Notes: generated by a model from the sequence alone, not told the origin. Counted from the stretch's first letter, positions 32,987 to 63,895 are shown. The stretch: 64,000 nucleotides of DNA from Candidatus Omnitrophota bacterium (GCA_003154195.1 PMCS01000029.1:304960-368959), one strand, 5' to 3'. Made by a program: numbers and translations.

Positions 32987-34645
32987 TTAACGCTGACGAT
33001 ATTTTTTCAGGTCTTCGGAGAATTGGGAGGTTGGTTTTGATCCTAATTCGGCCGCCCTGTCGCAATGCTTTATGGCTAAATTATATTTTTTCTGTTTATA
33101 ATAAAGCGCTGCCAAGTATTGATGCGCGTTGGCGTTGCCGGGTTTTTTCTTCAAGAGTTTTTCAAAAGCGTTTATCGCCTCTTCTATCCTGCCCGTTTGA
33201 AAGTAAACTATACCCATGTTATTAATATTATCCGGATATTCGGGATTTATCGCAAACGCTGTTTCAAAAGAAATAATCGCTTCTTTATATTTCCCTAAAT
33301 TAGAGTAGATGACTCCCAAATTATTGTAGGCGTTTACCAGCTGCGGTTCGATTTCTATTGCTTTTTTGTAAAAAGTCACAGCCTCTTGATATCGGCCAAG
33401 CTGATTATATTCATTGGCAAGGTTAAAATAGGGCCTGGCGCTACGGGGCGAATATTTTATCGTTTGCCGATAAAATCCTATCGGTTCCCGCCAATAGTAA
33501 TTTTGCCGGGCTGTTAAATAACAATAGGCGATTATTAGTAAAATAGCCGCTCCGGCCGTTATTATTTTGTATTGCCGGTTGCTGTAAATTTGGGTAAACC
33601 ATTTTCCCAGAATAAGGAAAAAGCCTACGGAAGGGACATATAAAAAATGTTCTGCCATATAAAAAGTAAGGGGAGGATAAATATTCGCGACCGGGATAAG
33701 CGTTATAAAAAACCATAAAACGGCAAACGATACTAAGGGGTTTGTGTTTTTTCTGCGCCCGGCATAGGCGATAAGGCAAATTGTTGCGCCTACGCCGGCA
33801 ATTGCCTGAGGGTGGCTGAATTTGAATAACTGGTTGCCGTATTCCATGTGCAGGTTCCAGGGAAGAAACAGCAACCGCAAATAGCCGGCTATGGCCACAA
33901 AGAAGCCCGGTGTCCTTTTCCAGGCGCCGGCAAGCAGGGATAAAGGAATGGCCGCCGATTTAGACACCGCAAGCCTTAAAAAAAGATAAACCGACAGTGT
34001 CGTTATTATCAAAAGAAACGCTTTGCCGTTGATTTTTCTTTTAAAAACGACGTGGTAGAGTAATATCAAAGCAGGAAAGACGATGCTGCCTTCTTTTGAT
34101 AACAGCGCCAATCCGTAAGTTAAAAAAGTTAGAAGATAAAGGGACGCGCCGGTAAGCCTGATATAGCAAATAAAACAAAGCAACATAAACAGCAACGCTA
34201 AAGAATCTGCCCGACCGGAGATATAACTTACTGCTTCCGTGTGTATGGGGTGAACAACAAAAAGCAAAGCGGTCAAAAAAGCAAGGAGCCTGTCGCCGAA
34301 GAGGCAGGCAACCAGCCGGAATAAAGCCAAAGCGGTTAAAATGTGCAAAAGAAGATTGGTTATATGGTAGCCGACGGGATTAAAGCCCCATAAGCGGTGA
34401 TCAAAGCTGTAGCTAAGCAGTTGCAGCGGGCGGTAAAAATAAGAAGGCGCATCGGTGTCCCCGATAGTTTTGGTAAAAACGGATTTTATGCCCGGACCGC
34501 CGCGGAGCGCGGGGTTGTTTTTAACTAAAGTTGTGTCATCCCACAAAAATTGGCCTTGAAATGAATTGTAGTAAGCGATAACAGCGGCGGCGATGATAAG
34601 CAAGGAAAAAAAAGTATAAGTTTTGTTTAATCCGAAAACTGCCAT
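32987..34645 (-). CDS. TMTC-like transmembrane glycosyltransferase (PMT_2/DUF1736 N-domain + C-terminal TPR repeats), paralog 1
   Basis: FLWDDTTLVKNNPALRGG (PMT-like loop DD motif), about 10 TM helices including a DUF1736-like region, and C-terminal TPR repeats (AINPEYPDNINNMGIVYFQTGRIEEAINAFEKLL). Confidence 0.7.
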   Translation of the reverse strand: MAVFGLNKTYTFFSLLIIAAAVIAYYNSFQGQFLWDDTTLVKNNPALRGGPGIKSVFTKTIGDTDAPSYFYRPLQLLSYSFDHRLWGFNPVGYHITNLLLHILTALALFRLVACLFGDRLLAFLTALLFVVHPIHTEAVSYISGRADSLALLFMLLCFICYIRLTGASLYLLTFLTYGLALLSKEGSIVFPALILLYHVVFKRKINGKAFLLIITTLSVYLFLRLAVSKSAAIPLSLLAGAWKRTPGFFVAIAGYLRLLFLPWNLHMEYGNQLFKFSHPQAIAGVGATICLIAYAGRRKNTNPLVSFAVLWFFITLIPVANIYPPLTFYMAEHFLYVPSVGFFLILGKWFTQIYSNRQYKIITAGAAILLIIAYCYLTARQNYYWREPIGFYRQTIKYSPRSARPYFNLANEYNQLGRYQEAVTFYKKAIEIEPQLVNAYNNLGVIYSNLGKYKEAIISFETAFAINPEYPDNINNMGIVYFQTGRIEEAINAFEKLLKKKPGNANAHQYLAALYYKQKKYNLAIKHCDRAAELGSKPTSQFSEDLKKYRQR

Positions 34646-34816
34646 CGGGCGTCGTTTTATCCTTAACCCATGGGGTTTTTTAAGTTATAGAGAAACCGGT
34701 TGTATCCCCAAAGTCTAAATGTTTTTCGGTCGATATTGAAAAATCCCTTTAAGTTTTAGATTGATTTGATATACTTATTAATAATAAATCTAAATAATAA
34801 GGGTGTCAAATAAATT

Positions 34817-36673
34817 ATGGAAATAATCACGGCTTTGGGGTCAGTTTTATTTATTATTTTATCGGCTGACGCGCTTGGCCGCCTGCCGCCAAGCGCTATT
34901 TTAAAAGATATATATGAGGCACGAATCGGCCTGGGGCTGGCGGTTATTTCCTATTTTATTTTTTTTCTCGGTATTTTTAAATTACTTAATTCCCCCGTTA
35001 TACTATTCTCGTCATTGCTTATTTTTTTACCGCTATTTTTCGCCAATTTAAAAAATTATAAATCTACCCTGCGGCGAACTGCAAGATATTTTTATCAACA
35101 AATCTGCTCGATGCCGATGTTCGATAAATTTATATTTTCTGTTTTAAGTGTTTACTTTGTTTTACTCTTTTTAAATACGCTGACGCCGCCCACCTGCCGT
35201 GATTCTTTGACTTACCATTTATATTTGCCTAAAATATGGCTGAAAGAACAACGGATATTTTCTTTACCAGAAAATATTTATTCATTTTTTCCGCATTTTT
35301 GGGAAATGCTTTATGCTTACGCTTTGCTTCTCGGCGGCGATATCGGCGCAAAGCTCCTGCATTTGTTTACCATTTTCCTAAGCGCGAGGCTCATCGCGAG
35401 AATCATTAAATTGTTGTACCCGCGGATAGAACGCCGGTATATTCTGCTGAGCATTCTTGTTTTTGTTTCCACTCCTACAATCGGCAAAATCGCCACCTGG
35501 GCATACGTCGATCTCGCCCAGACTTATTATCTTTTACTTTCTTTTTATTTCCTGTTTTTGTTCCTGCGGGGAGAAAGGAAAATAACGTTTTATTTGTCGG
35601 CCATCTTTTTAGGTTGCGCCTTAGCCATAAAATACCTTTCGTTGGTATGGCTTTTGTTTTTGCCGTTTTTGATTCTGGAGAAAAAGATTGAAGAAAAGAA
35701 AGGAAAAGAAGCTTTATTTTTGATCGGCGCTTATGTCACTACGGCTTTATCGTGCGCCTTACCTTATTATCTCAAAAATTATTTTGATACCGGCAACCCT
35801 TTTTATCCTTTTTTTTACGGTATCTTCGGCGGTCGATTCCTTGATGCCGGAAAAAGCGTGCTGCTTGACGGGTATTTTAAAAGTTTCGGCTATGGCAATG
35901 GGCTGGGTGATTTATTGTTTTTACCGATAAGATTGGCGTTTTTTTCACGGTTTGAAAACCATCAAAAGTTTGACGGCGAAATCGGGATAATTTATTTGTT
36001 GCTGGCGGTTATCTTTATATGTAAATATAAAAAAATAGATTTGTGGAAGTCTTTAATCTATCTACCCTTTATCGGCGTTTTATTATGGTTCGCGGCCAGC
36101 CAGCAGGTACGATTTTTAATTCCTTTGCTGGCGGTTTTTATCATAATCGCCATAGGGCCGCTGGGACGGGTAAATAAATTTTATTTAAATCTGGTTTTAG
36201 CGATAATCAGCGCTTTATATTTATATTACCCGACCAGGCAATTCATCGAAGCCAGGCCTTACAATTTTATTTTAAACAGGGAAAGCCGCCCGGCCTATTT
36301 AGTAAGAAGCTATCCGATTGTTTATCCCTTGATTGAGAAGATAAACCGGTATGTTCCCCGCGATTCAAAAATAATGCTTTTAATGACCGGACAGATCGCT
36401 TATTTGTTCCAACGCGATGTTTATCAAGAGGTAATCTTTGAAGATTACTCTTTAAGAAAAGCGCTACGGAAAGGGGTAGGCGAAACCATGGGATTTTTTA
36501 AAAATAACCGAATAACCTTTATACTTATTAACGAATCGGCGGTCGCCGGATATTTCGATGAATATGCCGGGAAACAGGTTATTTTTAATTACCTTGAGCT
36601 GAGAAGGAAATATTTAAAGCCGGTTTACCGGCAAAATGGTTTTGGTGTTTATGAAATTATTTTTCCGCGTTAA
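34817..36673 (+). CDS. Large polytopic membrane protein, putative GT-C fold glycosyltransferase
   Basis: 618 aa with at least 12 TM helices, a periplasmic-loop motif RDSLTYHLYLPKIW, and a C-terminal soluble domain. Confidence 0.4.
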   Translation: MEIITALGSVLFIILSADALGRLPPSAILKDIYEARIGLGLAVISYFIFFLGIFKLLNSPVILFSSLLIFLPLFFANLKNYKSTLRRTARYFYQQICSMPMFDKFIFSVLSVYFVLLFLNTLTPPTCRDSLTYHLYLPKIWLKEQRIFSLPENIYSFFPHFWEMLYAYALLLGGDIGAKLLHLFTIFLSARLIARIIKLLYPRIERRYILLSILVFVSTPTIGKIATWAYVDLAQTYYLLLSFYFLFLFLRGERKITFYLSAIFLGCALAIKYLSLVWLLFLPFLILEKKIEEKKGKEALFLIGAYVTTALSCALPYYLKNYFDTGNPFYPFFYGIFGGRFLDAGKSVLLDGYFKSFGYGNGLGDLLFLPIRLAFFSRFENHQKFDGEIGIIYLLLAVIFICKYKKIDLWKSLIYLPFIGVLLWFAASQQVRFLIPLLAVFIIIAIGPLGRVNKFYLNLVLAIISALYLYYPTRQFIEARPYNFILNRESRPAYLVRSYPIVYPLIEKINRYVPRDSKIMLLMTGQIAYLFQRDVYQEVIFEDYSLRKALRKGVGETMGFFKNNRITFILINESAVAGYFDEYAGKQVIFNYLELRRKYLKPVYRQNGFGVYEIIFPR

Positions 36674-37358
36674 ATTTTCCCATTACCCTTACCGGCTTTT
36701 TTCCGGCCAGGGGATATTAGGGTTATGTTTTTTTTCCTCTTTGCTATGGGAAAATTACCTGGTTAAATCAGGCAAGCCCACGGCAAGAGCCGTGCTGATA
36801 TTTTTATGCGCTTATCTTTTAATTTTTCACAGTACCTTTAGTTTCCGGGGAGGTCGGCCTGGATTAAATATTTTCAACTCCACCTACGCTCATTTTTTTA
36901 AAGCCGATATGGATAAATTGCTGGAGTTTAAGTCTATTTTTTATCCCGCCGATTATTACCCGATTGTCGATGTTATTAAAAAACATACCCGGCCGCAGGA
37001 GATTATTTCTTCCAATATCGATATGATGACCGGAGTTTTTTCCGCGTTATCCGGCCGGCCCGCGGCTAATTCGATGTTTTATGAAATAAAGGCCCGGAGG
37101 GCTATTTTCGAAGAGTATGTTTTTGCCCGGTTGATTGTCTGGATCAAACCGCCGGACAAAACTCTTTATTTTTTAAAAAACCGTTTGAAATGGCAAAAGA
37201 TTTATGAAAATAAAATCGCGATTGTTTTTGAGAATCCCAATGCTTCCCGCCGTATCTATCCCGCAAAAGCAGTAATCCCGTTTAAATATATCGGCGTAAT
37301 CTTAGCGATTATTTTTATGTTTTTGGCTTTTGATTTATTTTTGCGGAATAAAAAATAA
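36636..37358 (+). CDS. Hypothetical membrane-associated protein
   Basis: 240-aa ORF overlapping the previous gene by 38 nt in a different frame. Hydrophobic N- and C-termini. The start is uncertain; an internal ATG lies at 36912. Confidence 0.3.
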   Translation: MVLVFMKLFFRVKFSHYPYRLFSGQGILGLCFFSSLLWENYLVKSGKPTARAVLIFLCAYLLIFHSTFSFRGGRPGLNIFNSTYAHFFKADMDKLLEFKSIFYPADYYPIVDVIKKHTRPQEIISSNIDMMTGVFSALSGRPAANSMFYEIKARRAIFEEYVFARLIVWIKPPDKTLYFLKNRLKWQKIYENKIAIVFENPNASRRIYPAKAVIPFKYIGVILAIIFMFLAFDLFLRNKK

Positions 37359-37359
37359 A

Positions 37360-38967
37360 ATGAAATTATTGCATATTATTATAATAATAGTTCTCGGTTT
37401 AGTAATTTACTCTAATTCGCTGGCCGGTCGGTTTGTCTGGGATGATTATACCTTAGTGGAGGCAAACACTTACCTGAGGAGCTGGTCCCATGTGCCCGAT
37501 ATTTTTACCAGAGATATGGGTTCTGGCGCCGACGTAAAATATTATTTTTACCGCCCTTTGCAGATATTTATTTACCGCCTAATCTATTCCTTGGCGAAAT
37601 TAGATGTAAGATTTTACCATTTCGCCAATATTTTTTTTCATATCGGCGCTGCTTTATGCGTTTATGGATTAGCGGTTATGATTTTTAGCGATAGCTTGCC
37701 GGCTTTTTTTACGGGGATTCTCTTTTTGGTTCATCCGATACAAACCGATGCTGTTTGCTATATTTCCGGAATAGCTGACCCTCTCTGCGCGGTATTTTTG
37801 CTCTTGTCTTCTATATTTTATATAAAATTTATCCATTGCGATAATAATTTTCAATCCGGTGCCGGCCGCAAACGGATAATCTTTTATGTTTTAGCGCTAA
37901 TAAGCTGTAATCTAGCTCTTTTGTCCAAAGAAATTGGTTTGGTTTTTCCGCTTATACTTTTATTGTGCCATTATACGTTTAAGAAAAAACTAGAAGGTAA
38001 ATATTTTTTGCCATTTTTGATTATCGTTTTTAGTTACCTATTATTTCGCAATTCAATCGTCGGCAACAATGCCCCGTTTAGTTTTACCGCCGCAGTATTG
38101 AGAATTCCCGGATTTTTTGCCGCGCTCGCCGATTACGCCCGGCTTTTGCTGCTCCCTTTCGGTTTGCATGCGGATTACGGGAACAAGCTATTCAGTTTTT
38201 TTCAGCCCGTGACGATACTGGGATTGAGTATTGTACTTTTTTTGCTGGTTCTGGCGTTCAAGAAAAAAAATAAAAACAATATTCTATTCTTTTCCGTAAT
38301 GTGGTTTTTTATCACGCTTTTACCGGTTTCCGGGATATACCCTATTTTACGTTTTTATATGGCCGAACATTATTTATACCTGCCGTCGCTGGGATTCTTT
38401 TTAATTTTTGCCGACATCCTAAATCGTGCCTGCCGAGTTGACAAATTTAAAATTGCCGGCCGTATTTTAATAATATTTTTAGTCGGTTTTTATTCTTATT
38501 TGACCGTTAAACAGAATAATTACTGGCGGGAACCGGTAACATTTTATAAAAGGACGGTTAAATATAATCCTCTAAGCGTCAGGATGTGGATGATGCTTGG
38601 CGAGATCTATTTTGCCGGGGCCAGGTATGATGAGGCGGAGGCGGTATTCAAAAAGGTCGTAGAGATTAATCCCAACCATTCAGCCGGTTACTTTACCTTA
38701 GGCAATATCTATGCAAGGAGGGGGCAGTTTAAGGATGCCGCTTTTTATTTTGAAAAAGCCATCGAAGTTAACCCTGAGCACGCCGCGGCTTATAATAATC
38801 TGGCTAACCTTTTCAGGCAAATCGGCAGAAAAAATATCGCGGTATCTTTGTACAAAAAAGCTATCGAAGTTGATGCTCATCTTGAATCGGCTCGCGCCAA
38901 TCTTGCCGATATTTCTCATAATCTGGACGAGCCGGAACCAAAAAAGAAAAAAAATCGTCCAGATTAG
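37360..38967 (+). CDS. TMTC-like transmembrane glycosyltransferase with TPR repeats, paralog 2
   Basis: FVWDDYTLVEANTYLRSW, DUF1736-like TM core, and C-terminal TPRs (INPNHSAGYFTLGNIYARRGQFKDAAFYFEKAIEVNP). The ORF is open from 37330. Confidence 0.7.
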   Translation: MKLLHIIIIIVLGLVIYSNSLAGRFVWDDYTLVEANTYLRSWSHVPDIFTRDMGSGADVKYYFYRPLQIFIYRLIYSLAKLDVRFYHFANIFFHIGAALCVYGLAVMIFSDSLPAFFTGILFLVHPIQTDAVCYISGIADPLCAVFLLLSSIFYIKFIHCDNNFQSGAGRKRIIFYVLALISCNLALLSKEIGLVFPLILLLCHYTFKKKLEGKYFLPFLIIVFSYLLFRNSIVGNNAPFSFTAAVLRIPGFFAALADYARLLLLPFGLHADYGNKLFSFFQPVTILGLSIVLFLLVLAFKKKNKNNILFFSVMWFFITLLPVSGIYPILRFYMAEHYLYLPSLGFFLIFADILNRACRVDKFKIAGRILIIFLVGFYSYLTVKQNNYWREPVTFYKRTVKYNPLSVRMWMMLGEIYFAGARYDEAEAVFKKVVEINPNHSAGYFTLGNIYARRGQFKDAAFYFEKAIEVNPEHAAAYNNLANLFRQIGRKNIAVSLYKKAIEVDAHLESARANLADISHNLDEPEPKKKKNRPD

Positions 38968-38974
38968 TCATTTG

Positions 38975-40558
38975 TTAAAGCCGGTAGACCGACATTATTT
39001 TCAAGCCGTTTACGGTAAGCGAGTAATACTCGTTTTTAAGCGGATAATCTTTTTCGCGAAGGGAATAATTGCTTATAAAATAGTCAGCCTCATCGATTTT
39101 GTCAACGAAGCGTATGCGCTGCCGGTCTTCAGGCAGCAGGATAGGATAATTCCATTTACCGCCGTAATTAGCCGCGCATATTTTTATAATATTCCGCTTG
39201 TCGGTTTGCATGATGTACTCCAGCCCTTGGCGGTAGGATAAACCCCAGTAGTCCACCTCAAAATTATTTTTGATATTTTGAGGTTTTCCTGCCAGCGCGT
39301 TAAAATAAATATCCTGATAGGGATGGGCAACGGCCATGAACCAGGCCGTTTCCGCCAGATTAATTGTAATCAGCGCCGCGATAGCAATATCAAAAGTGCA
39401 TTTTGTCCCGCCGGTAAATCTTATCTTAATAAATTCTCTGAGAGCGGTTACCCCTTTTAAAGCAAAGAGCAAAACGGCCGGGTAGATAAAAAACATGTGG
39501 CGCCAGGAGTTATAAAGCGTTGGGCGGTATATGATCGCCGTTGTCATAGGAAAAAAGAGCCAGAGGAGAAAAATTAAATAATCACGGTGTCGCCGGTAAA
39601 ATTCCCGGAAACTAAAAATCATATTTTTAATAACCGCCGCCAGGCCGATTAGGAAAAGTACGAGATAAACCAGGGGTGTAGAAACAGCAATCCATACCGG
39701 TGTATAATGCCAGGGTGGATGGTTTATCTCGATGTAATTTCCTAAATATAAAATTTTTCCAGCCACGGGGAATTTTGTCATCAGCTTGAGCGATGCCATA
39801 AAATTAGAAAGCGGATTCTGCCATAGAATCGGCCAAAAAAGGATAGTAAGCAAAACCAGTAGCCCGGCATACAGCGCAAAGCTTAAAAATACGTTTGCTT
39901 GCTTTTTATCCGGCGGTAAAAGTATTTTTCCGATTGACTCGCTAAAAACAAAAATAACGGTGAAAAAAGGAACAATTACCCCGATTACCCGTAAATCGAT
40001 AAGCAGAGCGCAGGCCAGAGCGTGAAAAAATATACGCCCGAGAGTTCTTTTATCCAAATATCTTAGCAGGGTATAAATACTGATGATAAACATGGCCAGG
40101 AAAGGTATGTCTTTGGGATTATAAAAGGAATGAGCGAACAGTCGTGGGCTTAAGACCAGAAAGAGAGCGCCGAGCAATCCGGCCTTCCAATCGCCGAAGT
40201 GGTATTTACATAATCGGTAGAAGAAAAATACCCCCAGGTAAAATATTAAAAAATTTGCCAGGTGCCGGGCAAAGCATATATCTCTTGAATCTTGTAAATG
40301 TAAAATTTTCTCCGTGGCGATAAGGGTAACCTCAAAGATCGAGCCGTAGTGCCTATCGCGATTTTTAAGAAGTTCCTTGTTGCCTTTTACAATATAGCTA
40401 TAGGTTTCTTTTCCCAGGGTTCTTTGAAACTTTTCATCCCAGGAAACTCCGTAATCAGTGAATACTTTTATCCCGATTAAGAGATATACGGCAAAAAATA
40501 ACAGGACGATAACCCGGCGGTTGTTGTCAATTAAGCTTATAATTTTATATTTTGTCAT
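38975..40558 (-). CDS. GT39/ArnT-PMT-like polytopic glycosyltransferase
   Basis: First-loop D-E motif (YGVSWDEKFQRTLGKETYSY), about 12 TM helices, and a C-terminal periplasmic domain. Overlaps the upstream TMTC-like gene by 14 nt, indicating an operon. Confidence 0.55.
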   Translation of the reverse strand: MTKYKIISLIDNNRRVIVLLFFAVYLLIGIKVFTDYGVSWDEKFQRTLGKETYSYIVKGNKELLKNRDRHYGSIFEVTLIATEKILHLQDSRDICFARHLANFLIFYLGVFFFYRLCKYHFGDWKAGLLGALFLVLSPRLFAHSFYNPKDIPFLAMFIISIYTLLRYLDKRTLGRIFFHALACALLIDLRVIGVIVPFFTVIFVFSESIGKILLPPDKKQANVFLSFALYAGLLVLLTILFWPILWQNPLSNFMASLKLMTKFPVAGKILYLGNYIEINHPPWHYTPVWIAVSTPLVYLVLFLIGLAAVIKNMIFSFREFYRRHRDYLIFLLWLFFPMTTAIIYRPTLYNSWRHMFFIYPAVLLFALKGVTALREFIKIRFTGGTKCTFDIAIAALITINLAETAWFMAVAHPYQDIYFNALAGKPQNIKNNFEVDYWGLSYRQGLEYIMQTDKRNIIKICAANYGGKWNYPILLPEDRQRIRFVDKIDEADYFISNYSLREKDYPLKNEYYSLTVNGLKIMSVYRL

Positions 40559-52204: not shown

Positions 52205-52385
52205 TTAAAATTATTTATCGAAACGGGCGCAGTTTTTTGATTTTGTCAAAGGCGGGGAATGGAGTATAATATACTGGAAGAGGCTAAAGGCGCTTCGCTT
52301 AATTCTCATGGGACATTAAGCGTGGTGGGTTTAGCTGAAAGAAATAATTGTGGCGGGCGACCGGGTTTCATTGAGGAGGCGAATA

Positions 52386-54625: not shown

Positions 54626-55510
54626 ATGGCAAGAAGGAGGCCTAACGGGGTGAAGATAAGCGTTGTTTTACCGGCTTATAACGAGGCGGAAAATTTAAAG
54701 AATATATTGCCCGGAATTCGTAAGACCATGGGCGATGCGGCAGAAATCATCGTAGTGGACGATGCGTCGAGCGACCAAACGGCGCTCGTTGCCAGGGACT
54801 TTGGCGCGACGGTGATAAAAAATCCCTATAATATGGGTAACGGCGCCGCGGTCAAGCGCGGTATCCGCAGGGCCGGCGGCGACATTATCGTGTTGATGGA
54901 TTCTGACGGCCAGCACCGGCCGCAAGATATACCCCTGCTTTTAAAAGAATTGGACGATTTCGATATGGTTATCGGCGCGAGAACCAATTCCCAACAGGTT
55001 TGGTGGCGTAAATCTGCCAACGCGCTTTATAACTGTTTAGCTTCCTATGTTACGGATGTCAAGATCGACGATTTAACTTCGGGATTCCGGGTATTTAAAA
55101 AAGCGCAGGCGCTGAAATTTCTTTATTTGCTGCCTAATACTTTTTCTTACCCCTCAACGTTAACGCTGGCATTTATTAAGGCTTCTTATCCGGTTAAATT
55201 TGTTCCCGTGAATGTTCTTGCTCGGAGCAGGGGGGAAAGCAAGATAAATCTGATTAAAGACGGTTCGCGTTTCCTTTCGATTATTATGAAAATCAGCGTT
55301 TTTTTCGCGCCGCTGAAAGTATTTTTACCGGTTTCTCTGCTTTTCTTTTTTACCGGCCTCGGCTATTATAGTTATACTTTTTTTCTTTTCCACCGTTTTA
55401 CCAACATGAGCGCTCTGCTTTTTACCGCTTCCATTATCATCTTTATGCTTGGGCTTATTTCCGAACAAGTCGCTTCCTTAAAGATGGAAAAGATAGACGA
55501 AGAATCTTAA
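54626..55510 (+). CDS. GT2 polyprenol-phosphate sugar synthase (ArnC/GtrB/DPM1-like) with C-terminal TM anchor
   Basis: ISVVLPAYNEAENL...VVDDASSD...DSDGQH (DxD) with C-terminal TM helices. AAGGAGG lies 11 nt before the GTG at 54650, which may be the true start. Confidence 0.8.
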   Translation: MARRRPNGVKISVVLPAYNEAENLKNILPGIRKTMGDAAEIIVVDDASSDQTALVARDFGATVIKNPYNMGNGAAVKRGIRRAGGDIIVLMDSDGQHRPQDIPLLLKELDDFDMVIGARTNSQQVWWRKSANALYNCLASYVTDVKIDDLTSGFRVFKKAQALKFLYLLPNTFSYPSTLTLAFIKASYPVKFVPVNVLARSRGESKINLIKDGSRFLSIIMKISVFFAPLKVFLPVSLLFFFTGLGYYSYTFFLFHRFTNMSALLFTASIIIFMLGLISEQVASLKMEKIDEES

Positions 55511-55672: not shown

Positions 55673-55711
55673 CGGGAAGCTGATGTCGATTCACTTAAAG
55701 AGGATATGGAG

Positions 55712-57205
55712 CAAAAAAAATATAAATTGCCCCTGGTGTTTTTATCGTTGATCTTCTGGGTTTTTATTTTTATCAATATCTCCGGGGATTTTGTTAACTT
55801 CGGCGGCGACAGCAGCCAATACATAATCCTGGCGGAAAGCCTTGCGAGAGGTACGGGGTATCACGCGATCAATCAGCCCGGTTCGCCGTCATTTTTCTAT
55901 TATCCGCCTGTTTTTCCTTTGATTATTTCCCCGATTATTTATTTTTTTGGAAGAAACTTCTATTTAATGTATTTATTGATTGCTGTTTTCGGTTATTTAA
56001 GCTTGATTTTTCTTTACTATTTTTTTAAAACGCAGGCAGGAAGGGATATCGCATTTTTTTCCACGGCCTATTTAGCGTTGAACAACATCTTTATTTTTTA
56101 TTCTTCCGGGGTGATTTTATCGGAAATACCGTATTTATTTTTTTCGTCTTTTGCCCTTTACGCCGCTCATAAATATTTTTACGCGCCGGTATGCTTCGGC
56201 AAAGAAGCGATTTTACTTATCCTGGGTTTAATTGCCGCCTATCTCACGCGTTATATCGGGATAGTTTTATTTCCGGCCACGGTTATTTTTTTGTTCTTCT
56301 CCTGGGATAAGCGAAAGGCAGTTTTTGTCGCTTCTTCTTTTATCGCTTTTTTTATTCTTTGGCAAACTGTTATTAAAGCCGGAGGCGCATCTTCGAGCCT
56401 CCACTATCAACAATTGCTTTTAATCGATCCCTACCGGCCGTTTTTGGGAAATATCTTAACCAACCCGGGTTTTCTTCTTCTCCGTTTTATTGAAGGGATT
56501 AACTATTACGCCTATCTCACCGGAAGCATTTTCCTGCCGGTTTTTTTAAAAGGTTTTTGGGCGCGCAGTTTCTATCCGCCGGCGGTGTTTATTGTGATTA
56601 TTTATGGTGTATGCTGCGATTTTTTCGGGAACCGCAGCCGCTTGCTTCCTTCCTATTTTATTTTTTATTTTCTCCTTACCGTTTTATGGCCGTTTAAGGA
56701 AGGCGTAAGATTTTTAGTGCCTATTTTACCGTTTTTTGTTTACTATATTTTTATTGCGCTTAAATCTTTGACGTCATTTTTAAAAAGCCAGATGATCGCC
56801 CGGTATATTTTTTACGTGCCGGCAATTTTTATTATTTTTTTTTCCAATACCCCGGCTTTCCCCATTAAGCAATACGCTTACCAGGATTTATCTAAGGAGC
56901 TTAAGAATTTTATCGCGCTGCACCTATGGATCAAAAACAATATTCCCGCAAACAGTATTATTGCCGGCCGCAAGCCTACCCTTACTTATTTTTATACCGG
57001 ACGGCAGGCTTTGGACTATCCTTTTACTCTCAACGATGAAGAAATGAAGCAATTCTTCGTCGACAACCATGTTGATTATGTGATCATCGACGAATTTTCT
57101 CAGGAAACCCGCAGCTATCTTCTGCCGTTTTTAAAAAAGTATAACCGTAGTTTCAAGCTAACGTATCGTGTAGGAAATACATTGTTGTTGGAAAAGATAA
57201 AATGA
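55712..57205 (+). CDS. GT39/ArnT-PMT-like polytopic glycosyltransferase
   Basis: GGDSSQYIILAESLARGTGYH first-loop motif and at least 11 TM helices. RBS AAGAGGA before the ATG at 55712. The track ORF starts at 55643, inside the palindrome. Confidence 0.55.
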   Translation, partial: QKKYKLPLVFLSLIFWVFIFINISGDFVNFGGDSSQYIILAESLARGTGYHAINQPGSPSFFYYPPVFPLIISPIIYFFGRNFYLMYLLIAVFGYLSLIFLYYFFKTQAGRDIAFFSTAYLALNNIFIFYSSGVILSEIPYLFFSSFALYAAHKYFYAPVCFGKEAILLILGLIAAYLTRYIGIVLFPATVIFLFFSWDKRKAVFVASSFIAFFILWQTVIKAGGASSSLHYQQLLLIDPYRPFLGNILTNPGFLLLRFIEGINYYAYLTGSIFLPVFLKGFWARSFYPPAVFIVIIYGVCCDFFGNRSRLLPSYFIFYFLLTVLWPFKEGVRFLVPILPFFVYYIFIALKSLTSFLKSQMIARYIFYVPAIFIIFFSNTPAFPIKQYAYQDLSKELKNFIALHLWIKNNIPANSIIAGRKPTLTYFYTGRQALDYPFTLNDEEMKQFFVDNHVDYVIIDEFSQETRSYLLPFLKKYNRSFKLTYRVGNTLLLEKIK

Positions 57206-57220
57206 TGTTATGGTGAATTT

Positions 57221-59374
57221 ATGGCACAGCCGGTTTTTCTTTCGATAATAATCCCTGCTTTTGATGAGGAATGTCGTATTGCCGATTCCCTCAAGGCTCT
57301 TTTTGATTATCTGGGGCGCCGGCCGTTTACCTATGAGGTCATCGTCGTGGATGACGGGTCAAGGGATAATACCGTCAGTCTGGTTAATAATTTCGATAAA
57401 GATTATCATCTAGTTTTGCGTCTGATTGAAAACCATGCCAATCGCGGCAAAGGCTATTCAGTCCGGCAGGGGGTATTAATGAGCGCCGGCGAGTTCGTTA
57501 TCTTTACCGATGCCGATCTCTGCTGCCCGGTGGAAGAGATAGATAAATTAGTCGGTTTACTCCAGGAAGGCAACGATATCGTTATCGGCTCGCGGGCGGT
57601 CAAAGGCGCGAATTTAGTCATCCGGCAGCCATGGTGGCGAGAGGCCATGGGAAGGTGCTTTAACCTTTTAGTGCAAGCGTTTGTTCTTCCGGGAATTTGG
57701 GATACGCAATGCGGTTTTAAAGGGTTCCGGGGGAGCGTGGCCAGGGAGATTTTTTCTAAAGCGTTGATCGATCGTTTTGGTTTCGATGTGGAGATTCTTC
57801 TGTTCGCCCGGCAAAAGGGGTATAAGATTATTGAGGTCGGCGTGGCTTGGCGACACTCCTCTCCTTCCAAGGTCGCCGCTTTGCGCGATTCGCTGCGCAT
57901 GCTTATAGAGTTAGCGCGGATAAAAATGAAATTTAAAAAAGAAAATTTAAATACAAAGAATTTTTCCGGCATAATCTATAAATTATATATTTTTATCATT
58001 GCTTACATTTTACTGGCGGCGTTACCGTTGTTTTTGTACTTAAGCTATCGGCATTCGTTGGGAGCTTATCGGATGATGTGGCTTAATCTGTGGGGAGCAC
58101 ATTATAATTTTTTTCTGGAAACGCCTAAACCGCTGATGGCTTTTTTCGCCGGAGTTATCGGGCCGTCATATTTGTATTTATTCGCCTGTTTGTTTGGAGC
58201 GTTGCTTGTAGTATGCTGGGCGGAGATTTCTTTAGGCATTACGGGAAGTATATGGCACGGTGTGGTTGCTTCTTTCCTGTACTTTTTTACCAGCAAAGAA
58301 GTTTTGATTAATTTCCTTCTGCCGGTTTCCTGGGGTATATTCTATATACCTTTGATATGGTGGTCGGTAACCTTGTTGATACTCCGGCGTTACCGGCCGG
58401 CGGCGGCCATAATGTTTTTATCCGGTTTGTTGAGGCCGGAAAGCTGGCTTTTCGGCATTTTAATGCTCGTCTGGTTCCGGCTGCGCCGCATACCTTTACG
58501 GCCGGTATATTGGCTCGCGGCTTTTGCCCCTTTTATCTGGATGTTGTTTGACTGGCGCATCACCGGTAACCTTTTCGCTTCAGCGTTGATCACGAAACAA
58601 TATGGTGCTTTAACCGGTTTTCCGATTACCACCTTCACGTCGTTTTGGCCGATGCTTATAATGATTACGCCGTATTTATATAACCCGCCGATTTTATTAT
58701 GCGGTTCAATCGGTTTGGGCACCTATGTTTTTCAGAGTATCCGACGCAAGCATCTTTCTGATTACGATATTATTTTTATTTTATCCGCCGCTACCTTAAT
58801 CGGGTATTGGTTGGTAACTATCGGACAGAATATTGTGATATTTCCCAGATTTTTGGTTTTTCCCTACAGTGCGATTTATTTGTTCGCCGGTTTGATGCCG
58901 GCTTTTTTATCGCGGCGGTATATTTTAGGATATTTATTGCTTGCCTTATTATTTATCGCCGCCCGGCCCGAGAAGCTTTTAATCAACGCTGCTCGTAAAT
59001 ACGGCAACGCGCAATCGTCGGCTGATGCCATGCGCGAGGCCGGTGATTTTCTTGAGGGGTATTTTAAACGCCGCCCTTCGCGCGGTAAAATTTTATGCGA
59101 AGCCGGCGCGGATTATTTATCGCTGCGTTTCGGCGAAGATTTTTCCCGCCGGATTATTTTTTTTCGTGAAATCGGCAGCGCGGCGGAATTTGATAAAACG
59201 CAAGTTGGCCTTGCCATATATCAATATTGGAGCGAAATGCCGGTCCACGGCAAATTTTTATTCCTCGGCGGCGGCCGGCGCGTTGTTTTAAATAACCGGT
59301 ATATTTTTACGCCGGTTTTTATCAGCCGGAACCGCTTGGCGATCGTGTATGAAATAAACCGCAAAAGTTTTTAG
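57221..59374 (+). CDS. Fusion protein: N-terminal GT2 polyprenol-phosphate sugar synthase (DPM1-like) + C-terminal ~480-aa polytopic membrane domain
   Basis: LSIIIPAFDEE...VVDDGSRDNT...FTDADL (DxD), then a TM domain whose conserved block MWLNLWGAHYNFFLETPKPLMAFF is paralogous to the protein at 62453-63895. Confidence 0.7.
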   Translation: MAQPVFLSIIIPAFDEECRIADSLKALFDYLGRRPFTYEVIVVDDGSRDNTVSLVNNFDKDYHLVLRLIENHANRGKGYSVRQGVLMSAGEFVIFTDADLCCPVEEIDKLVGLLQEGNDIVIGSRAVKGANLVIRQPWWREAMGRCFNLLVQAFVLPGIWDTQCGFKGFRGSVAREIFSKALIDRFGFDVEILLFARQKGYKIIEVGVAWRHSSPSKVAALRDSLRMLIELARIKMKFKKENLNTKNFSGIIYKLYIFIIAYILLAALPLFLYLSYRHSLGAYRMMWLNLWGAHYNFFLETPKPLMAFFAGVIGPSYLYLFACLFGALLVVCWAEISLGITGSIWHGVVASFLYFFTSKEVLINFLLPVSWGIFYIPLIWWSVTLLILRRYRPAAAIMFLSGLLRPESWLFGILMLVWFRLRRIPLRPVYWLAAFAPFIWMLFDWRITGNLFASALITKQYGALTGFPITTFTSFWPMLIMITPYLYNPPILLCGSIGLGTYVFQSIRRKHLSDYDIIFILSAATLIGYWLVTIGQNIVIFPRFLVFPYSAIYLFAGLMPAFLSRRYILGYLLLALLFIAARPEKLLINAARKYGNAQSSADAMREAGDFLEGYFKRRPSRGKILCEAGADYLSLRFGEDFSRRIIFFREIGSAAEFDKTQVGLAIYQYWSEMPVHGKFLFLGGGRRVVLNNRYIFTPVFISRNRLAIVYEINRKSF

Positions 59375-59491
59375 TTACTTTTTATTTGAACCGCGGAAAT
59401 CCGCCGAATTTATCCGGTGCGCCTGCCCGCGGCAGGTAGGCAGCTGGAATTTTTAAAAAAATTAAAGAAATAGCGGCATTTTTTGGGTTAA

Positions 59492-61096
59492 TTGATTGTT
59501 ATGGCTATATTAGAAAATTTAACTAAACCGGTTTCCCGCAAAACGCAAGGGGCGATCATACTTGGCCTGATCCTTATGCTGTCGTTTCTCGCCAGGCTTC
59601 CTTTTTTAAATGTCCCCTTAGACGGCGACAGCGGAGTTTTTACGGCAATCGGCCGGCTGATTGCCCGGCATGGCCTTCTGCTTTACCGCGATCTTTTCGA
59701 AATTAAACCTCCGGGAATATATTTTTTGTTTGCCGCCTTATTCAAGGTCATTGATTTAGACCTGTTTGGTGTTAACGTGTTCACCGCTTGCTGGAACACG
59801 GCGAATGTATTTTTGGTCTACCTTCTGGCGAAGCGCTTATTTAATAAAAAAACTGCTTTAATCGCGGCATTTTTTTACGGTTTGTTTTCCTCGAGCCCTG
59901 TAATCTCTGGCACTTTTCCTCTCACCGAAAATTTTATGATAACCTTTACAGTGATGGGAGCTTTTTTTGTAATTAAATCAATACAAGAAAACCGCAATTT
60001 TTATTTTCTCGCCGGATTATTTTACGGTGTTGGTTTTCTTTTTAAGCAGATTGCCGCCATGGAGATGTTTGCCGCCGTCATTTTGCTATTTCTGGCATCA
60101 TTCAGGCCGGGGGGGAAAGTAGAAATAAAATATTTTTTACGCGGTTTATTATTTTACTCTGGCGGTCTTATCCTCATCTTCGGCATAAGCGCTTTATATT
60201 TTTTTATAAAAGGCGCCTACAATGATTTTATCTTCTGCGCGCTTATTTATAATTTTAAGTATATAAGCGTAGGCTATCGCAGCCTTAGCAGCTATTGGCT
60301 TCATTTCTTTAATGCTAATTTTGCTATTTTTCGCGCTACGGCGCTATTATGGATAACAAGCGCGATATTTATGGCAGAGACATTTAAGGATATTTTTACG
60401 AAACGCCCGGCCGCCGGAGAAAAACAGGCGGTTCTAAACCGTATTTTTTTGTTAGTTTGGATTATTTTTGCGTTTATAGGCGTTTGTTTAAGCGGCCAAT
60501 TTATCGTCCACTACTATATTGTTTTAATGCCCCCTTTTAGCATAGCTTGCGCCGCGGCTTTAACCCGGCCGTGGGCCGCGCGGCGTAATAGTTTTTATAA
60601 TGCCGTGATGTATATTTTAACGGCCGTATGCGTTATCTACGCGATAGCCGTCCATTATCGGTATTATTTTACCTATAAACCTGAGGAGATTGCGATTAAT
60701 GTTTTTGGGGATTCGCCTTTTAATGAGGCGCGTCAGGTGGGATTATATTTACGCCGGCACACTACCCCCGGCGATTATATTTATAATTGGTCGAAAGAGC
60801 CGGAGATATTCTTTTATACCCGGGCTAAGCCGACAAGCCGTTATCTTTGGTTGTCCCACTACACTGTTTATTATCGCCCCGGCGCGGTAGACGAAGTGGC
60901 TCATGCCTTGGCCGAGCACCCGCCAAAATATATCGTCATCGATACGCATATTGGCCACTGGATACATGAGCCGATATTTAAACCGATCAAAGATTTTTTT
61001 GACCGGAATAAATATATTCCGGAAAAGGATTTTTCCGTAGTGCGAAACGGCAAATTCCAATATAATTTTTTAGTTTCCCGGCGTATAGAAAGGTAA
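59492..61096 (+). CDS. GT39/ArnT-PMT-like polytopic glycosyltransferase
   Basis: LDGDSGVFTAIGRLIARHGLLLYRDLFEIKPPGIYFL matches the D-x-G-x-Y-A-x-I-G-R-x-M-x...-KPPL-x-YWL first-loop pattern of ArnT/PMT_2-like enzymes; about 12 TM helices. Confidence 0.55.
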   Translation: MIVMAILENLTKPVSRKTQGAIILGLILMLSFLARLPFLNVPLDGDSGVFTAIGRLIARHGLLLYRDLFEIKPPGIYFLFAALFKVIDLDLFGVNVFTACWNTANVFLVYLLAKRLFNKKTALIAAFFYGLFSSSPVISGTFPLTENFMITFTVMGAFFVIKSIQENRNFYFLAGLFYGVGFLFKQIAAMEMFAAVILLFLASFRPGGKVEIKYFLRGLLFYSGGLILIFGISALYFFIKGAYNDFIFCALIYNFKYISVGYRSLSSYWLHFFNANFAIFRATALLWITSAIFMAETFKDIFTKRPAAGEKQAVLNRIFLLVWIIFAFIGVCLSGQFIVHYYIVLMPPFSIACAAALTRPWAARRNSFYNAVMYILTAVCVIYAIAVHYRYYFTYKPEEIAINVFGDSPFNEARQVGLYLRRHTTPGDYIYNWSKEPEIFFYTRAKPTSRYLWLSHYTVYYRPGAVDEVAHALAEHPPKYIVIDTHIGHWIHEPIFKPIKDFFDRNKYIPEKDFSVVRNGKFQYNFLVSRRIER

Positions 61097-61261
61097 ATAA
61101 CCTGGATAACTGCCTATACGCCGGGGAAGTCTAAGGTAGAGCCGGGATGGCCGCTTTCAGCGGCTGACTTGCCCGTTTATAAGGAACTTAGCTTTGGCAT
61201 CCATGGTTTTACCGTAAGGAGGGTTTAATCTTTGTCAATTTGCCGCAGGCAAATTAGCGGA

Positions 61262-61298
61262 TAAATTCACCTCGCGGTAAACTGCGAGGTGAATTTAT
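61262..61298 (+). promoter_or_regulatory. 13-bp perfect hairpin enclosing the Shine-Dalgarno of the GT4 gene
   Basis: AAATTCACCTCGC-ggtaaact-GCGAGGTGAATTT. GAGGTG lies in the 3' arm, 8 nt before the ATG at 61299. Confidence 0.5.
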
Positions 61299-62417
61299 AT
61301 GAAAGTGCTTTTTATCAGCCGCAGTTTTCCTCCCTTAAGGGGGGGGATGGAAAAAGTAGCCCATAATCTTTATACCGATTTTTCGGCTAAGGCAAGCGTT
61401 ACGCTTATAAAATGGAGTGGTTCAAAGAAATGGCTTGTGTTCGTTTTGCCGGTTTTTTTTATGAAAAGCGCATGGTATCTTTTGTGTAAAAAAATCGACG
61501 TAATCTATTTATGCGACGGTTTTCTTTCTCTCTTGATACCGTTTTTAAGAATTTTTAAAAAACCGATTATAGTTACCGTTCACGGTTTGGATATAACCTA
61601 CAAAAATAAATCTTATCAGGCGATTATCCCCAAAAAAATAGCCTTAGCGGACAGGGTAGTTTGCGTAAGCCGCGCGACTGCCGGCGAGTGTTTAAAAAGG
61701 AATATCCCGGAGGAAAAGATTTGTATCGTGCCTAACGGTATAAAAGATGAGTTTTATCTGGCCGGGGGTAGGGGAAATTTAAAAGCCGCGCTTGAACGCA
61801 AATTAAAAATAAATATCGGTAACAAAAAAGTGCTGCTCTCCGTGGGGAGGCTTATCGAGCGTAAAGGGATCCATTGGTTTATTAAAGAAATCGTGCCTAA
61901 GATTAAAGCGGATTGCGCCGATTTCGTTTATTTGGTCGCCGGATGCGGCAAAATGGCCGAAGATATCCGGGCGATTATTAAAAATAATGCTTTAGAGAAT
62001 TGGGTGGTTATGGTTGGAGAAGTAAGCGACGAGGAGCTGAAAATTTTATACAACGCGGCTGATATCTTTGTGATGCCTAATATTCCCGTCGCGGGCGATT
62101 TTGAAGGGTTTGGCATTGTGATTCTGGAAGCAGCGAGCTGTGGCCTGGCGGTGGTAGCTTCTGACATGGAAGGCATCAGGGACGCGCTTGGGGATGGAGA
62201 CTGGGGGGTTTTAATTGAGCCGCTTAACGCCGCTAAATTTAGCGGGGAGATTTTGAATTTAATGAGAGATGATGATAGAAGAGCCAACTTGGCTACGCGC
62301 GCCCGGGCCGGCGTAATTGATGTTTTTAATTGGCCGGGCGTCGCGCAAAAATATTTGGATATTTTTAATGAGACTTCGTCGATAATGAAACTTGCCCGGT
62401 ACTCCGGGCCTAGTTGA
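61299..62417 (+). CDS. GT4-family glycosyltransferase (GT-B fold)
   Basis: EX7E-type motif FVMPNIPVAGDFEGFGIVILEAASCGLAVVAS. The last ~17 codons (SSIMKLARYSGPS) are translated from the AATGAGACTT repeat, so the annotated C-terminus is repeat-derived. Confidence 0.75.
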   Translation: MKVLFISRSFPPLRGGMEKVAHNLYTDFSAKASVTLIKWSGSKKWLVFVLPVFFMKSAWYLLCKKIDVIYLCDGFLSLLIPFLRIFKKPIIVTVHGLDITYKNKSYQAIIPKKIALADRVVCVSRATAGECLKRNIPEEKICIVPNGIKDEFYLAGGRGNLKAALERKLKINIGNKKVLLSVGRLIERKGIHWFIKEIVPKIKADCADFVYLVAGCGKMAEDIRAIIKNNALENWVVMVGEVSDEELKILYNAADIFVMPNIPVAGDFEGFGIVILEAASCGLAVVASDMEGIRDALGDGDWGVLIEPLNAAKFSGEILNLMRDDDRRANLATRARAGVIDVFNWPGVAQKYLDIFNETSSIMKLARYSGPS

Positions 62418-62440
62418 ATTATCCCGGAGGGGATAGCCGG
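62367..62440. repeat. AATGAGACTTC-family repeat copy overlapping the GT4 3' end
   Basis: aatgagacttcgtcgataatgaaacttgcccggtactccgggcctagttgaatta, then a cccggagggg hairpin. Confidence 0.65.
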
Positions 62441-62452
62441 ATTAATAAACCG

Positions 62453-63895
62453 ATGACAAAAAATAAATTTTTCCCAACGGGCATAATCTTCGCAGGGTCA
62501 TTTCTTTTCTTCTTTTTCTTGCCCCATATTTTTTATTTGCGCTTTAAGCCGTCGTGGGAACCGTTTATCATGATGTGGCTTAATGTTTGGGGGGCGCACT
62601 ATAACTTTTTGATTGAAACCCCTAAGCCTTTGATGGCGTTTTTAAGCGCAATCTTGCCGCAAAAGTTTTTATATCTTTTTCTGCCTTTGTTCTGCGCTTT
62701 ATGGTGCACGGTGTTAGTTGAGTTGTCAAAAGAGATAACCGGCAAGCGTATCTTCGGGTTATTTGCTGTATTTTTTTGTTTTTTTTGTAACGCGGAGATA
62801 ATCGCCGCCGTTTTTTCCGGAGAGTGGACGGTTATTTATCCGCCTCTCGTGTTTTTCGCTCTTTTATTTTTTATGAGGCAGAAGTATTTTTTGTCTTCGC
62901 TGATTATGCTTTTTGCCGGTTTACTCCGGCCGGAAAGTTGGTTGTACAGCGCATTTTTTCTAATCTGGATGAAATCGCAGAAGAAACACCTGAAGCCGTT
63001 ATATTTTATATCCTTGCTCGCGCCTTTTTTATGGGCGTTGTTTGATTGGCGGCTTTCCGGAGATTGGTTTTATTCTTATCACGCGACGGCAAGGCATGCC
63101 GCGGTCAGCGGTTTTCCCGTGACGACCTTTTTTAATTTTTGGCCGGCCGTCGCCAGGAATACATTTTTACTCTATAATCGGGTAATCTTAAGTTGTGGGA
63201 TAATCTTTGTTTTGATGGATTTATTGAGAAGCTATAAAAAGCAAGGAGAAAAGCATGGTAATTTAATGATGGTTATGGTGATTTTGCCTTTTTTGTTTTA
63301 CTGGGCGCTATCGTTAAAAGGTTCAATCGTCGTTTATCCCCGTTTTTTTGCTTTTTCCTATGCCGTAATATATTTTTGCGCGGTATTGCTTCCCTGGTTG
63401 ATTTTTAAGGAACGTAAAATTTTGACCATATTTTTTCTGGTATTGCTGGCGTTGGTTTCTTTTTCCCGGGATAATCTGGGTTTTGCTGTTACCAAAAGAA
63501 TTTATGATGATAAAATAGATAAAACCTCGCGAGAGTTGGGTGATTTTCTGCAAGGCTATCTGGCTAACCATAAAGTAACCGGTAGGGTATTGGCGGGGAA
63601 TAACGCGTGGTATTTTTCTTTGCGGCTGGGCGAAGAATTTTCTCAAAAAATCATCATGTTTCGCGAGGCCGGGACATATCCGGAGTTGTTAAAAGAAATC
63701 CCGCCGGGTTTGGCCGTATATCAGAAATGGGGTGAGGCGGGAGCCGGCGAAAAGTTTGATTTCTTGCGGCGGCCGCGAAAGTTTGTCGTTAAAAATAAAT
63801 ATATTTTTAACCCCCTATTCGTGACCGGCGACAAATGCGGCATAGTTTATGAAGTTTTTCTAAAGGCAGCGGATAATAAACTTGCTTCTCAATGA
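62453..63895 (+). CDS. Polytopic membrane protein paralogous to the C-terminal domain of the GT2 fusion (putative lipid-linked sugar utilising transferase)
   Basis: MMWLNVWGAHYNFLIETPKPLMAFLSAIL and LLRPESWLY / LAPFLWALFDWRLSGDW blocks are shared with 57221-59374. The ORF is open from 62414. Confidence 0.5.
   Translation: MTKNKFFPTGIIFAGSFLFFFFLPHIFYLRFKPSWEPFIMMWLNVWGAHYNFLIETPKPLMAFLSAILPQKFLYLFLPLFCALWCTVLVELSKEITGKRIFGLFAVFFCFFCNAEIIAAVFSGEWTVIYPPLVFFALLFFMRQKYFLSSLIMLFAGLLRPESWLYSAFFLIWMKSQKKHLKPLYFISLLAPFLWALFDWRLSGDWFYSYHATARHAAVSGFPVTTFFNFWPAVARNTFLLYNRVILSCGIIFVLMDLLRSYKKQGEKHGNLMMVMVILPFLFYWALSLKGSIVVYPRFFAFSYAVIYFCAVLLPWLIFKERKILTIFFLVLLALVSFSRDNLGFAVTKRIYDDKIDKTSRELGDFLQGYLANHKVTGRVLAGNNAWYFSLRLGEEFSQKIIMFREAGTYPELLKEIPPGLAVYQKWGEAGAGEKFDFLRRPRKFVVKNKYIFNPLFVTGDKCGIVYEVFLKAADNKLASQ

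Follow-up and report, generated by a model that had tools for sequence, protein, structure and literature searches.

Between positions 32,987 and 63,895 of the 64,000-nucleotide stretch considered here (the window), part of the chromosome of an uncultured Candidatus Omnitrophota bacterium whose closest named homologs are all from Omnitrophota, lies a 31-kb island of 20 open reading frames (ORFs) densely populated by membrane glycosyltransferases. We judge, with a probability of roughly 0.6, that it is a periplasmic glycosylation island drawing on polyprenyl-phosphate monosaccharide donors, and that five of its enzymes, those with C-terminal tetratricopeptide repeats (TPRs), are protein O-glycosyltransferases. 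The general scheme is well known: a polyprenyl-phosphate sugar is made in the cytoplasm, flipped, and its sugar transferred by integral membrane enzymes of the glycosyltransferase C (GT-C) fold. What is new is the density of GT-Cs (within the window a firm tally of 10, a probable one of 12 and a possible one of 14, with at least 16 candidates in about 36 kb on counting past its end), the presence of five TPR paralogs in one island, two GT-C families that present profile libraries do not see, the fusion of a GT2 enzyme to a polytopic domain, and the pairing of a homolog of decaprenylphosphoryl-5-phosphoribose (DPPR) synthase with a B12-binding radical S-adenosylmethionine (B12-rSAM) enzyme in place of DprE1 and DprE2. 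An earlier interpretation made from the DNA alone (the sequence-only reading) had given the ORF coordinates and pointed to the wealth of glycosyltransferases; the ORF listing and family searches bear out both.

The events envisaged begin on the cytoplasmic face, where two GT2s of the ArnC/dolichyl-phosphate mannose synthase (DPMS)/GtrB type would load nucleotide-sugar-derived sugars onto polyprenyl phosphate, a UbiA-family enzyme would, going by its homology, load phosphoribose from phosphoribosyl pyrophosphate and, going by its neighbourhood, the B12-rSAM enzyme encoded by the overlapping gene would modify the lipid-linked sugar. After flipping, for which the window yielded no flippase, a battery of GT-Cs would transfer sugars to periplasmic acceptors. 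The TPR paralogs would O-glycosylate serine or threonine, with the TPR superhelix recruiting substrates as it does for TfpW with pilin and for TMTC1–4 and TMEM260 with cadherin and plexin domains, while TPR-less GT-Cs may extend the glycans so begun or act on lipid, glycan or other envelope acceptors.

The five TPR proteins, every one with strong TPR hits, are mutually 25–49% identical and hence paralogs; paralog 4 is the outlier, with 25–29% full-length identity to the other four. An AlphaFold2 model of paralog 3 (built with 51 homologs; pLDDT 91.6) has 11 transmembrane (TM) helices in a GT-C membrane fold followed by about seven TPRs. Invariant in 51 of the 51 family members are D31 and D32 directly after TM1, R68-P69, P129, E185, E330 and Y334; P129 sits in an H-P-I-H-T-E segment, and 50 members share H128 and R141-x-D143. 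An equally invariant W310-x6-P317-x5-P323, a form of the EmbC/TfpW proline motif, precedes the last two TM helices. Positive charges fall in the predicted cytoplasmic loops, which puts both the DD loop and the TPR domain on the periplasmic side. That the cores are GT-C, as the sequence-only reading had supposed, and not transporters is well supported by the motifs and the predicted fold.

Might these proteins nevertheless be inactive, membrane-anchored TPR scaffolds or chaperones with a degenerate GT-C-like core? No Pfam GT-C family passes its cut-off in any of the five, PMT_2 coming in below threshold in paralog 1 alone (25.6 against 26.1 bits; this paralog is 42% identical to the modelled paralog 3), and the NCBI label is only ‘tetratricopeptide repeat protein’. 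However, the catalytic-site residues of GT-C and TMTC enzymes (DD, R-P, RxD, E185 and E330-x3-Y334) are invariant or nearly so across 51 diverse members, and the genes sit among those for donor synthesis both here and at a locus in GCA_030638955.1. The TM cores (44–49% identity) are also somewhat better conserved than the TPR domains (34–42%), as would be expected if the chemistry is common to them and the targets diverge. We consider the scaffold explanation very improbable.

The family is not small. A profile search with the TM core against 1.84 billion proteins retrieved 113,837 representatives of 50%-identity clusters, 32,357 of them at E<=1e-30, and the public records name them only for their TPRs. 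So large a family is next to unannotated, and the present locus is a useful entry point to it. The main papers on Omnitrophota make no mention of the enzymes of the island. Current profile libraries miss outright both this family and that of a second GT-C considered below (53018–54517).

What do such enzymes glycosylate elsewhere? TfpW of Pseudomonas aeruginosa/paraeruginosa O-arabinosylates pilin and requires a DPPR synthase to do so; its 11 TM helices are joined by an essential DDX motif in periplasmic loop 1 and by a TPR domain that is likewise periplasmic. With TfpW and its D-arabinofuranose pathway (PsPA7_6245–6251) the island shares about 11 TM helices, DD(X) in loop 1, a C-terminal periplasmic TPR domain with a proline motif before it, a DPPR-synthase (Rv3806c) homolog and pilin genes nearby. 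The likeness is one of architecture and pathway, and TfpW is the sole characterized bacterial analogue of this architecture. It differs in that here there are five paralogs plus some ten other GT-Cs, and in that a B12-rSAM gene overlaps the UbiA gene in an island lacking DprE1, DprE2, a phosphatase and a GtrA-like gene. The metazoan counterparts, TMTC1–4 (CAZy GT105) and TMEM260, are protein O-mannosyltransferases that act on cadherin and plexin domains. They too have a GT-C fold of 11 TM helices with a TPR domain, lumenal in their case, and the likeness to TMTC1–4 extends to the motifs DD (M1), YRPL..LT (M2), RxD (M3), (K)E (M4; K184 is present in 27 of the 51) and E-x-x-x-Y (M7), and to HPIHTE in TM3, which matches the TMTC3 segment LLFAVHPIHT. 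In contrast, the ‘strictly conserved’ Arg of the ERxxY motif has given way to His in all but three of the 51 members (E330-H-x-x-Y334 in 48), the donor lipid would be a bacterial polyprenyl phosphate, and cadherin and IPT domains cannot be the acceptors here.

Since TfpW, TMTC1–4 and TMEM260 all O-glycosylate proteins through TPR-mediated recognition, protein is the best-supported class of acceptor for the TPR paralogs, and Ser/Thr O-glycosylation with the TPR domain recruiting substrates is, on this analogy, their most likely activity. The sequence-only reading had proposed protein O-glycosylation too, reasonably; its addition that the system acts on many substrates is conjecture. Its statement that no characterized bacterial system of this kind was known does not hold, in view of the architecture and DPPR-synthase dependence of TfpW, and the streptococcal pairs of GT2 and GT-C have also been characterized.

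Turning to the donors, ArnC, archaeal DPMS and GtrB each load a sugar onto polyprenyl phosphate, and both GT2s of the island have a GT-A domain closest to those of these three enzymes, together with a membrane anchor. For the free-standing one (54626–55510) the best matches in the PDB are ArnC (1e-19), DPMS (1e-18) and GtrB (7e-15). For the fusion (57221–59374) the best 120 database hits, among them homologs named dolichyl-phosphate beta-glucosyltransferase, cover the GT2 part only; its polytopic domain recurs free-standing 3 kb downstream (62414–63895). Neither GT2 reaches an NCBIfam equivalog cut-off. The UbiA-family protein aligns over its full length (residues 6–292) with the solved Mycobacterium tuberculosis enzyme (8j8j; E=7.7e-39). 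The B12-rSAM gene overlaps its gene at 51323; the enzyme reaches no NCBIfam equivalog (BchE 190 bits, HpnJ 181 bits), and its best PDB matches are the sugar diol-dehydratase AprD4 (E=1.6e-14) and then the B12-dependent methylases TsrM, TokK and CysS. A pigment pair of BchE/BchG type was entertained for the two, and rejected because the UbiA protein is clearly of DPPR-synthase type. The closest relatives of the B12-rSAM enzyme among GTDB species representatives are in archaea, namely DPANN/Iainarchaeota and Methanosarcinales (41–44% identity). The archaeal genes (loci L011–L019 and L030–L034) always adjoin genes for Dpm1-like GT2s, and a DPPR-synthase-like UbiA gene is linked to the rSAM gene in one archaeal locus (rSAM-UbiA) and one metagenome contig (rSAM-GT2-UbiA). 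From this conserved neighbourhood the enzyme probably modifies a lipid-linked sugar, and transfer of such a modification module between the domains is possible. A literature search found nothing on a UbiA plus B12-rSAM sugar pathway, and the recurrence of B12-rSAM beside polyprenyl-phosphate sugar synthases in Omnitrophota and these archaea points to lipid-linked sugars being modified in a way not yet described.

The pairing of a GT2 synthase with an extracytoplasmic GT-C recalls the three-component systems (GtrA/GtrB/GtrC, ArnC/ArnE-F/ArnT, CsbB/GtrA/YfhO and the streptococcal PgfS-PgfM1 and GtrB-PgtC2, the last two of which O-glycosylate Ser/Thr-rich regions of membrane proteins). Unlike them, the island has GT-Cs that far outnumber the donor synthases, TPR domains on five GT-Cs, and one GT2 fused to a 450-residue polytopic domain. 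Clustering of a DPPR-synthase homolog with GT-C enzymes is likewise a feature of the mycobacterial decaprenyl-phosphoarabinose pathway with its Emb and Aft transferases, but there are no Emb-type C-terminal carbohydrate-binding domains here and the host is not an actinobacterium but a didermic member of the Omnitrophota with lipopolysaccharide (LPS)-type genes.

Among the GT-Cs without TPRs, four (38975–40558, 42491–44191, 55706–57205 and 59501–61096) pass the PMT or PMT_2 cut-offs, in keeping with the at least four GT39/ArnT-like proteins of the sequence-only reading, whose donor synthases, GT4 and B12-rSAM enzyme are likewise matched in Pfam, NCBIfam or the PDB. The protein of 53018–54517 is of a different sort. 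It has no Pfam match (STT3 included, at E<=10) and no NCBIfam match, yet its predicted structure has a GT-C core and a C-terminal globular domain of the type found in the oligosaccharyltransferase AglB, with AftA and AftB among the structural matches. Compared with STT3, AglB and PglB it lacks the WWDYG motif in that domain and is only 499 residues long. Its family, named ‘hypothetical protein’, is nearly confined to Omnitrophota (there is one Elusimicrobiaceae record) and has the consensus H-x-x-W-S-D-S-P-Y, in which the window copy has V for W (V-S-D-S-P).

An alternative is that the island makes or modifies some glycoconjugate of the envelope other than protein, be it LPS core, lipid A, a lipoglycan or a polymer resembling arabinan, with GT-Cs working like ArnT, Emb/Aft or Gtr and TPRs as periplasmic scaffolds instead of receptors for protein substrates. 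The PMT_2/ArnT-like matches, the GT4 within the island and the GH94 gene flanking it would suit this, as would the DPPR synthase, which opens the pathway to the arabinan donor; W310-x6-P317-x5-P323 resembles the EmbC chain-length motif, and the best structural matches of the TPR domain include the scaffolds PilF and PilW. In two other Omnitrophota genomes, moreover, homologs of the 53018–54517 protein have LPS-type neighbours: one (locus L023, 11485–16219) is encoded beside a pair of TPR-GT-C genes and one for a GT9 heptosyltransferase, and another (L025, 11618–12553) beside a gene for an LpxL-type lipid A acyltransferase (Lip_A_acyltrans), the contexts of the family being otherwise unrelated between genomes. 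Against this, all characterized 11-TM GT-Cs with C-terminal TPRs act on proteins, there is no DprE1/DprE2 for an arabinose donor, and Pfam and NCBIfam scans found in the island no Wzx, Wzy or Wzz, no ABC exporter, no initiating phosphoglycosyltransferase and no O-antigen ligase. As the sequence-only reading had it, the locus is not a recognizable LPS, O-antigen or arabinogalactan cluster, and we regard a non-protein product as possible but on balance unlikely.

Protein O-glycosylation has its own difficulties. The sequence-only reading had credited the five ‘TMTC-like’ proteins with a PMT_2/DUF1736 core and a TPR array, and while the arrays stand, no core matches DUF1736 even in a permissive Pfam scan at E<=10 (run on the TM cores and on proteins without hits), whereas human TMTCs match it, in their TM7–TM8 loop, at E<1e-30, with one TMTC1 isoform at 1e-19; nor does extracytoplasmic loop 4 (EL4), with its conserved L-H-M-[ED]-Y-G, have the conserved DW of motif M5. 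TPR domains also act as envelope scaffolds, as in PilF, BcsC and LapB, and the LPS-type neighbours just described hint at non-protein acceptors for some members of the 53018–54517 family. The family of 62414–63895 may not be one of glycosyltransferases: this protein and the related domain of the GT2 fusion have no Pfam match at E<=10 and in NCBIfam only LA_3751/2 at 18.6 bits, where the cut-off is 200, and hhalign comparison (with single- or two-sequence queries) to the TPR-GT-C and 53018–54517 family profiles gave probabilities of at most 19%. The window's annotated ORFs include neither DprE1 nor DprE2, the pair known from the TfpW and mycobacterial pathways, and likewise no PAP2 phosphatase and no GtrA-type flippase of the kind found in three-component systems, so that a pentose donor either differs from that of TfpW and mycobacteria or is incomplete here. 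Finally, that protein is the acceptor of the TPR enzymes is a prediction by analogy. The two adjacent type IV pilins are plausible candidates by their adjacency, but their genes, which end 448 nucleotides from the stop codon of 32987–34645 on the opposite strand, are convergent with this nearest TPR-GT-C gene and hence not co-transcribed with it, and a pilin gene adjoins TPR-GT-C homologs in none of the seven other Omnitrophota loci examined.

Several of these points bear also on whether the island is a dedicated pilin glycosylation locus, an expanded TfpW-like system that furnishes the adjacent pilins with pentofuranose-containing glycans. The two prepilin genes lie right before the island, a further pilin-like gene lies past the window end, and the architecture and DPPR synthase match those of the TfpW system. 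Type IVa pili are near-universal in Omnitrophota and linked to host attachment. A cyclic di-GMP (c-di-GMP)-I riboswitch lies between the two genes, about 360 nucleotides upstream of the second, and suggests that this pilin is under c-di-GMP control. However, the convergent orientation (tfpW lies directly downstream of pilA), the lack of adjacent pilin genes in the seven other loci, an array of seven TPR proteins included, the absence of DprE1/DprE2 and the implausibility of devoting sixteen transferases to two small pilins render so specialized a role unlikely.

Elsewhere in Omnitrophota the TPR-GT-C genes occur singly in housekeeping contexts, in pairs or as a tandem array, the last in GCA_030638955.1 (locus L036, 1–14036) where seven TPR protein genes follow one another, of which the TM-core profile confirms six as TPR-GT-C while the seventh is cut by the locus end, with genes for a small radical SAM protein, a GT2, a GGDEF protein and a PilZ protein downstream. 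The 31-kb arrangement was looked for across the phylum and not found. Given such varied contexts the arrangement is lineage-specific and the expansion of paralogs a trait of the phylum; synteny, offered by the sequence-only reading as a check, thus does not show an island conserved as a unit, even if tandem TPR-enzyme arrays recur. The single integrated multi-enzyme system which that reading envisaged is likewise not supported, with homologs elsewhere alone or in other company, and what the island holds is probably a set of donor–transferase modules working in parallel and not one obligate pathway.

Returning to O-glycosylation by the TPR enzymes, a bolder version is that Omnitrophota have an expanded counterpart of TMTC, TMEM260 and TfpW, in tandem arrays of up to seven with each TPR domain selecting its own class of periplasmic or surface protein, the whole amounting to a broad O-glycosylation system specific to protein domains and served in part by a new lipid-linked, pentose-derived donor for which DPPR synthase and B12-rSAM replace DprE1 and DprE2. 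This is speculative and we hold it to be doubtful as a whole, though if it were so, the way in which these ultra-small bacteria live attached to hosts by their pili would be shaped by glycosylation of the cell surface. The animal relatives TMTC1–4 are disease genes. The presence of five TPR enzymes beside probable donor genes and candidate pilin substrates (Table 1) provides concrete gene combinations for co-expression.

Table 1. Features of the glycosylation island and its upstream flank. Scores are in bits; Pfam cut-offs are PMT_2 26.1, PMT 22.7, PTPS_related (PF10131) 26.4, HAMP 25 and N_methyl 21.2. aa, amino acids.
Position	Strand	Feature	Evidence and remarks
20479-23358	+	Minor-pilin-like gene run	N_methyl in 20972-21565; DUF4900 in 21562-22917
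28149-30782	-	GH94-family protein (glycan phosphorylase type), 877 aa	Just upstream of pilin genes
31076-31447	+	Type IV pilin-like gene 1, 123 aa	N_methyl 24.5, above cut-off; GFTLIE prepilin motif; C-terminal half rich in Ser, Thr and Asn
31618-31800	+	c-di-GMP-I riboswitch (RF01051)	56.4 against gathering score 35; E=2.4e-8
32159-32539	+	Type IV pilin-like gene 2, 126 aa	N_methyl 36.1; GFTLIE motif; C-terminal half rich in Ser, Thr and Asn; convergent with TPR-GT-C paralog 1
32987-34645	-	TPR-GT-C paralog 1, 552 aa	11-TM core, DD after TM1, C-terminal TPR array; TPR_1 111
34817-36673	+	Polytopic protein, 618 aa, possible GT-C	PMT_2 19 and LIC_10190 family 24.7 (both weak); about 12 hydrophobic segments
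36636-37358	+	Membrane protein, 240 aa	Called as gene on identical contigs
37360-38967	+	TPR-GT-C paralog 2, 535 aa	TPR hits; 43% identity to paralog 3; start from independent gene calls
38975-40558	-	PMT_2-type GT-C, 527 aa	W-D-E after TM1; PMT_2 27.6, above cut-off; overlaps upstream gene by 14 nucleotides
40545-42407	-	TPR-GT-C paralog 3, 620 aa	Representative used for structure model
42491-44191	-	PMT_2/STT3-N-type GT-C, 566 aa	C-D-E after TM1; PMT_2 37.2 and STT3 34.4, above cut-offs
44369-46063	+	Polytopic protein, 564 aa, probable GT-C (PTPS_related type)	PF10131 24.3, below cut-off; residues 76-398
46106-48154	+	TPR-GT-C paralog 4, about 680 aa	Most divergent; F-DD motif; TPR hits
48275-49954	+	TPR-GT-C paralog 5, 559 aa	E-R-Y-L-Y at M7 position; end overlaps B12-rSAM start by 20 nucleotides
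49935-51323	+	B12-binding radical SAM enzyme, 462 aa	B12-binding 91; Radical_SAM 74
51323-52204	+	UbiA-family polyprenyl-phosphate phosphoribosyltransferase (DPPR-synthase type), 293 aa	NCBIfam NF008977 (decaprenyl-phosphate phosphoribosyltransferase) 253.9 against curated cut-off 234
52350-52973	+	Small two-TM protein	Weak HAMP-like segment, 23.7, under cut-off
53018-54517	+	GT-C enzyme, 499 aa	About 12 TM helices, with AglB-like C-terminal alpha/beta domain (predicted)
54626-55510	+	GT2 polyprenyl-phosphate glycosyl synthase, 294 aa	Glycos_transf_2 102.7; two C-terminal TM segments
55706-57205	+	PMT/PMT_2-type GT-C, 499 aa	PMT 27.3, above cut-off; PMT_2 25.9
57221-59374	+	Fusion, 717 aa: N-terminal DPMS/ALG5-like GT2 and C-terminal 450-aa polytopic domain	Glycos_transf_2 102.9; PDB DPMS 3.4e-18
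59501-61096	+	PMT_2-type GT-C, 531 aa	PMT_2 56.4; weak ArnT-family NCBIfam hit
61299-62417	+	GT4 (GT-B fold) nucleotide-sugar glycosyltransferase, 372 aa	Glycos_transf_1 117.6; Glyco_transf_4 50.5
62414-63895	+	Polytopic protein, 493 aa	Paralog of C-terminal domain of 57221-59374; 38% identity, E=2.5e-101

The 240-residue membrane protein of 36636–37358 has no Pfam family match, E<=10 included. Proteins identical to those of the window, and contigs at least 99.9% identical to it, are present in ENA ‘WOOD18’ metagenome scaffolds, JGI metagenome 3300014494 and NCBI assembly GCA_003154645.1; these sample sets are probably Stordalen Mire peatland data. Independent gene calls on the identical contigs reproduce the operon-like overlaps 40545/40558 (14 nucleotides) and 49935/49954 (20 nucleotides) on which the sequence-only reading had remarked. 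Where other assemblies of the population seemed to differ from the window by indels, the cause proved to be scaffolding gaps filled by runs of N and not real variation. One same-population contig (L026, 11272–21119) carries the island about 5 kb beyond the window end at 64000, with genes for a 567-residue polytopic protein without a Pfam hit, a 549-residue paralog of 38975–40558 and an LPG_synthase_TM protein, this last being a possible flippase for lipid-linked sugars; thereafter come genes for an IS200-type Y1 transposase and for ABC transporters, together with the further pilin-like gene.

On the other side of the island, the first 30 kb of the window hold housekeeping genes (for PNPase, FtsK, RodZ, XseA, PgsA and PgpA). 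After the minor-pilin-like run within this part there is encoded a 145-residue protein rich in Ser, Pro and Lys with an N-terminal hydrophobic segment (22921–23358), which resembles the disordered extracytoplasmic regions that are O-glycosylated in streptococci. Also among the housekeeping genes, on the minus strand at 15896–17149, is one that encodes a bacterial serpin of full length (388 bits with Pfam Serpin).

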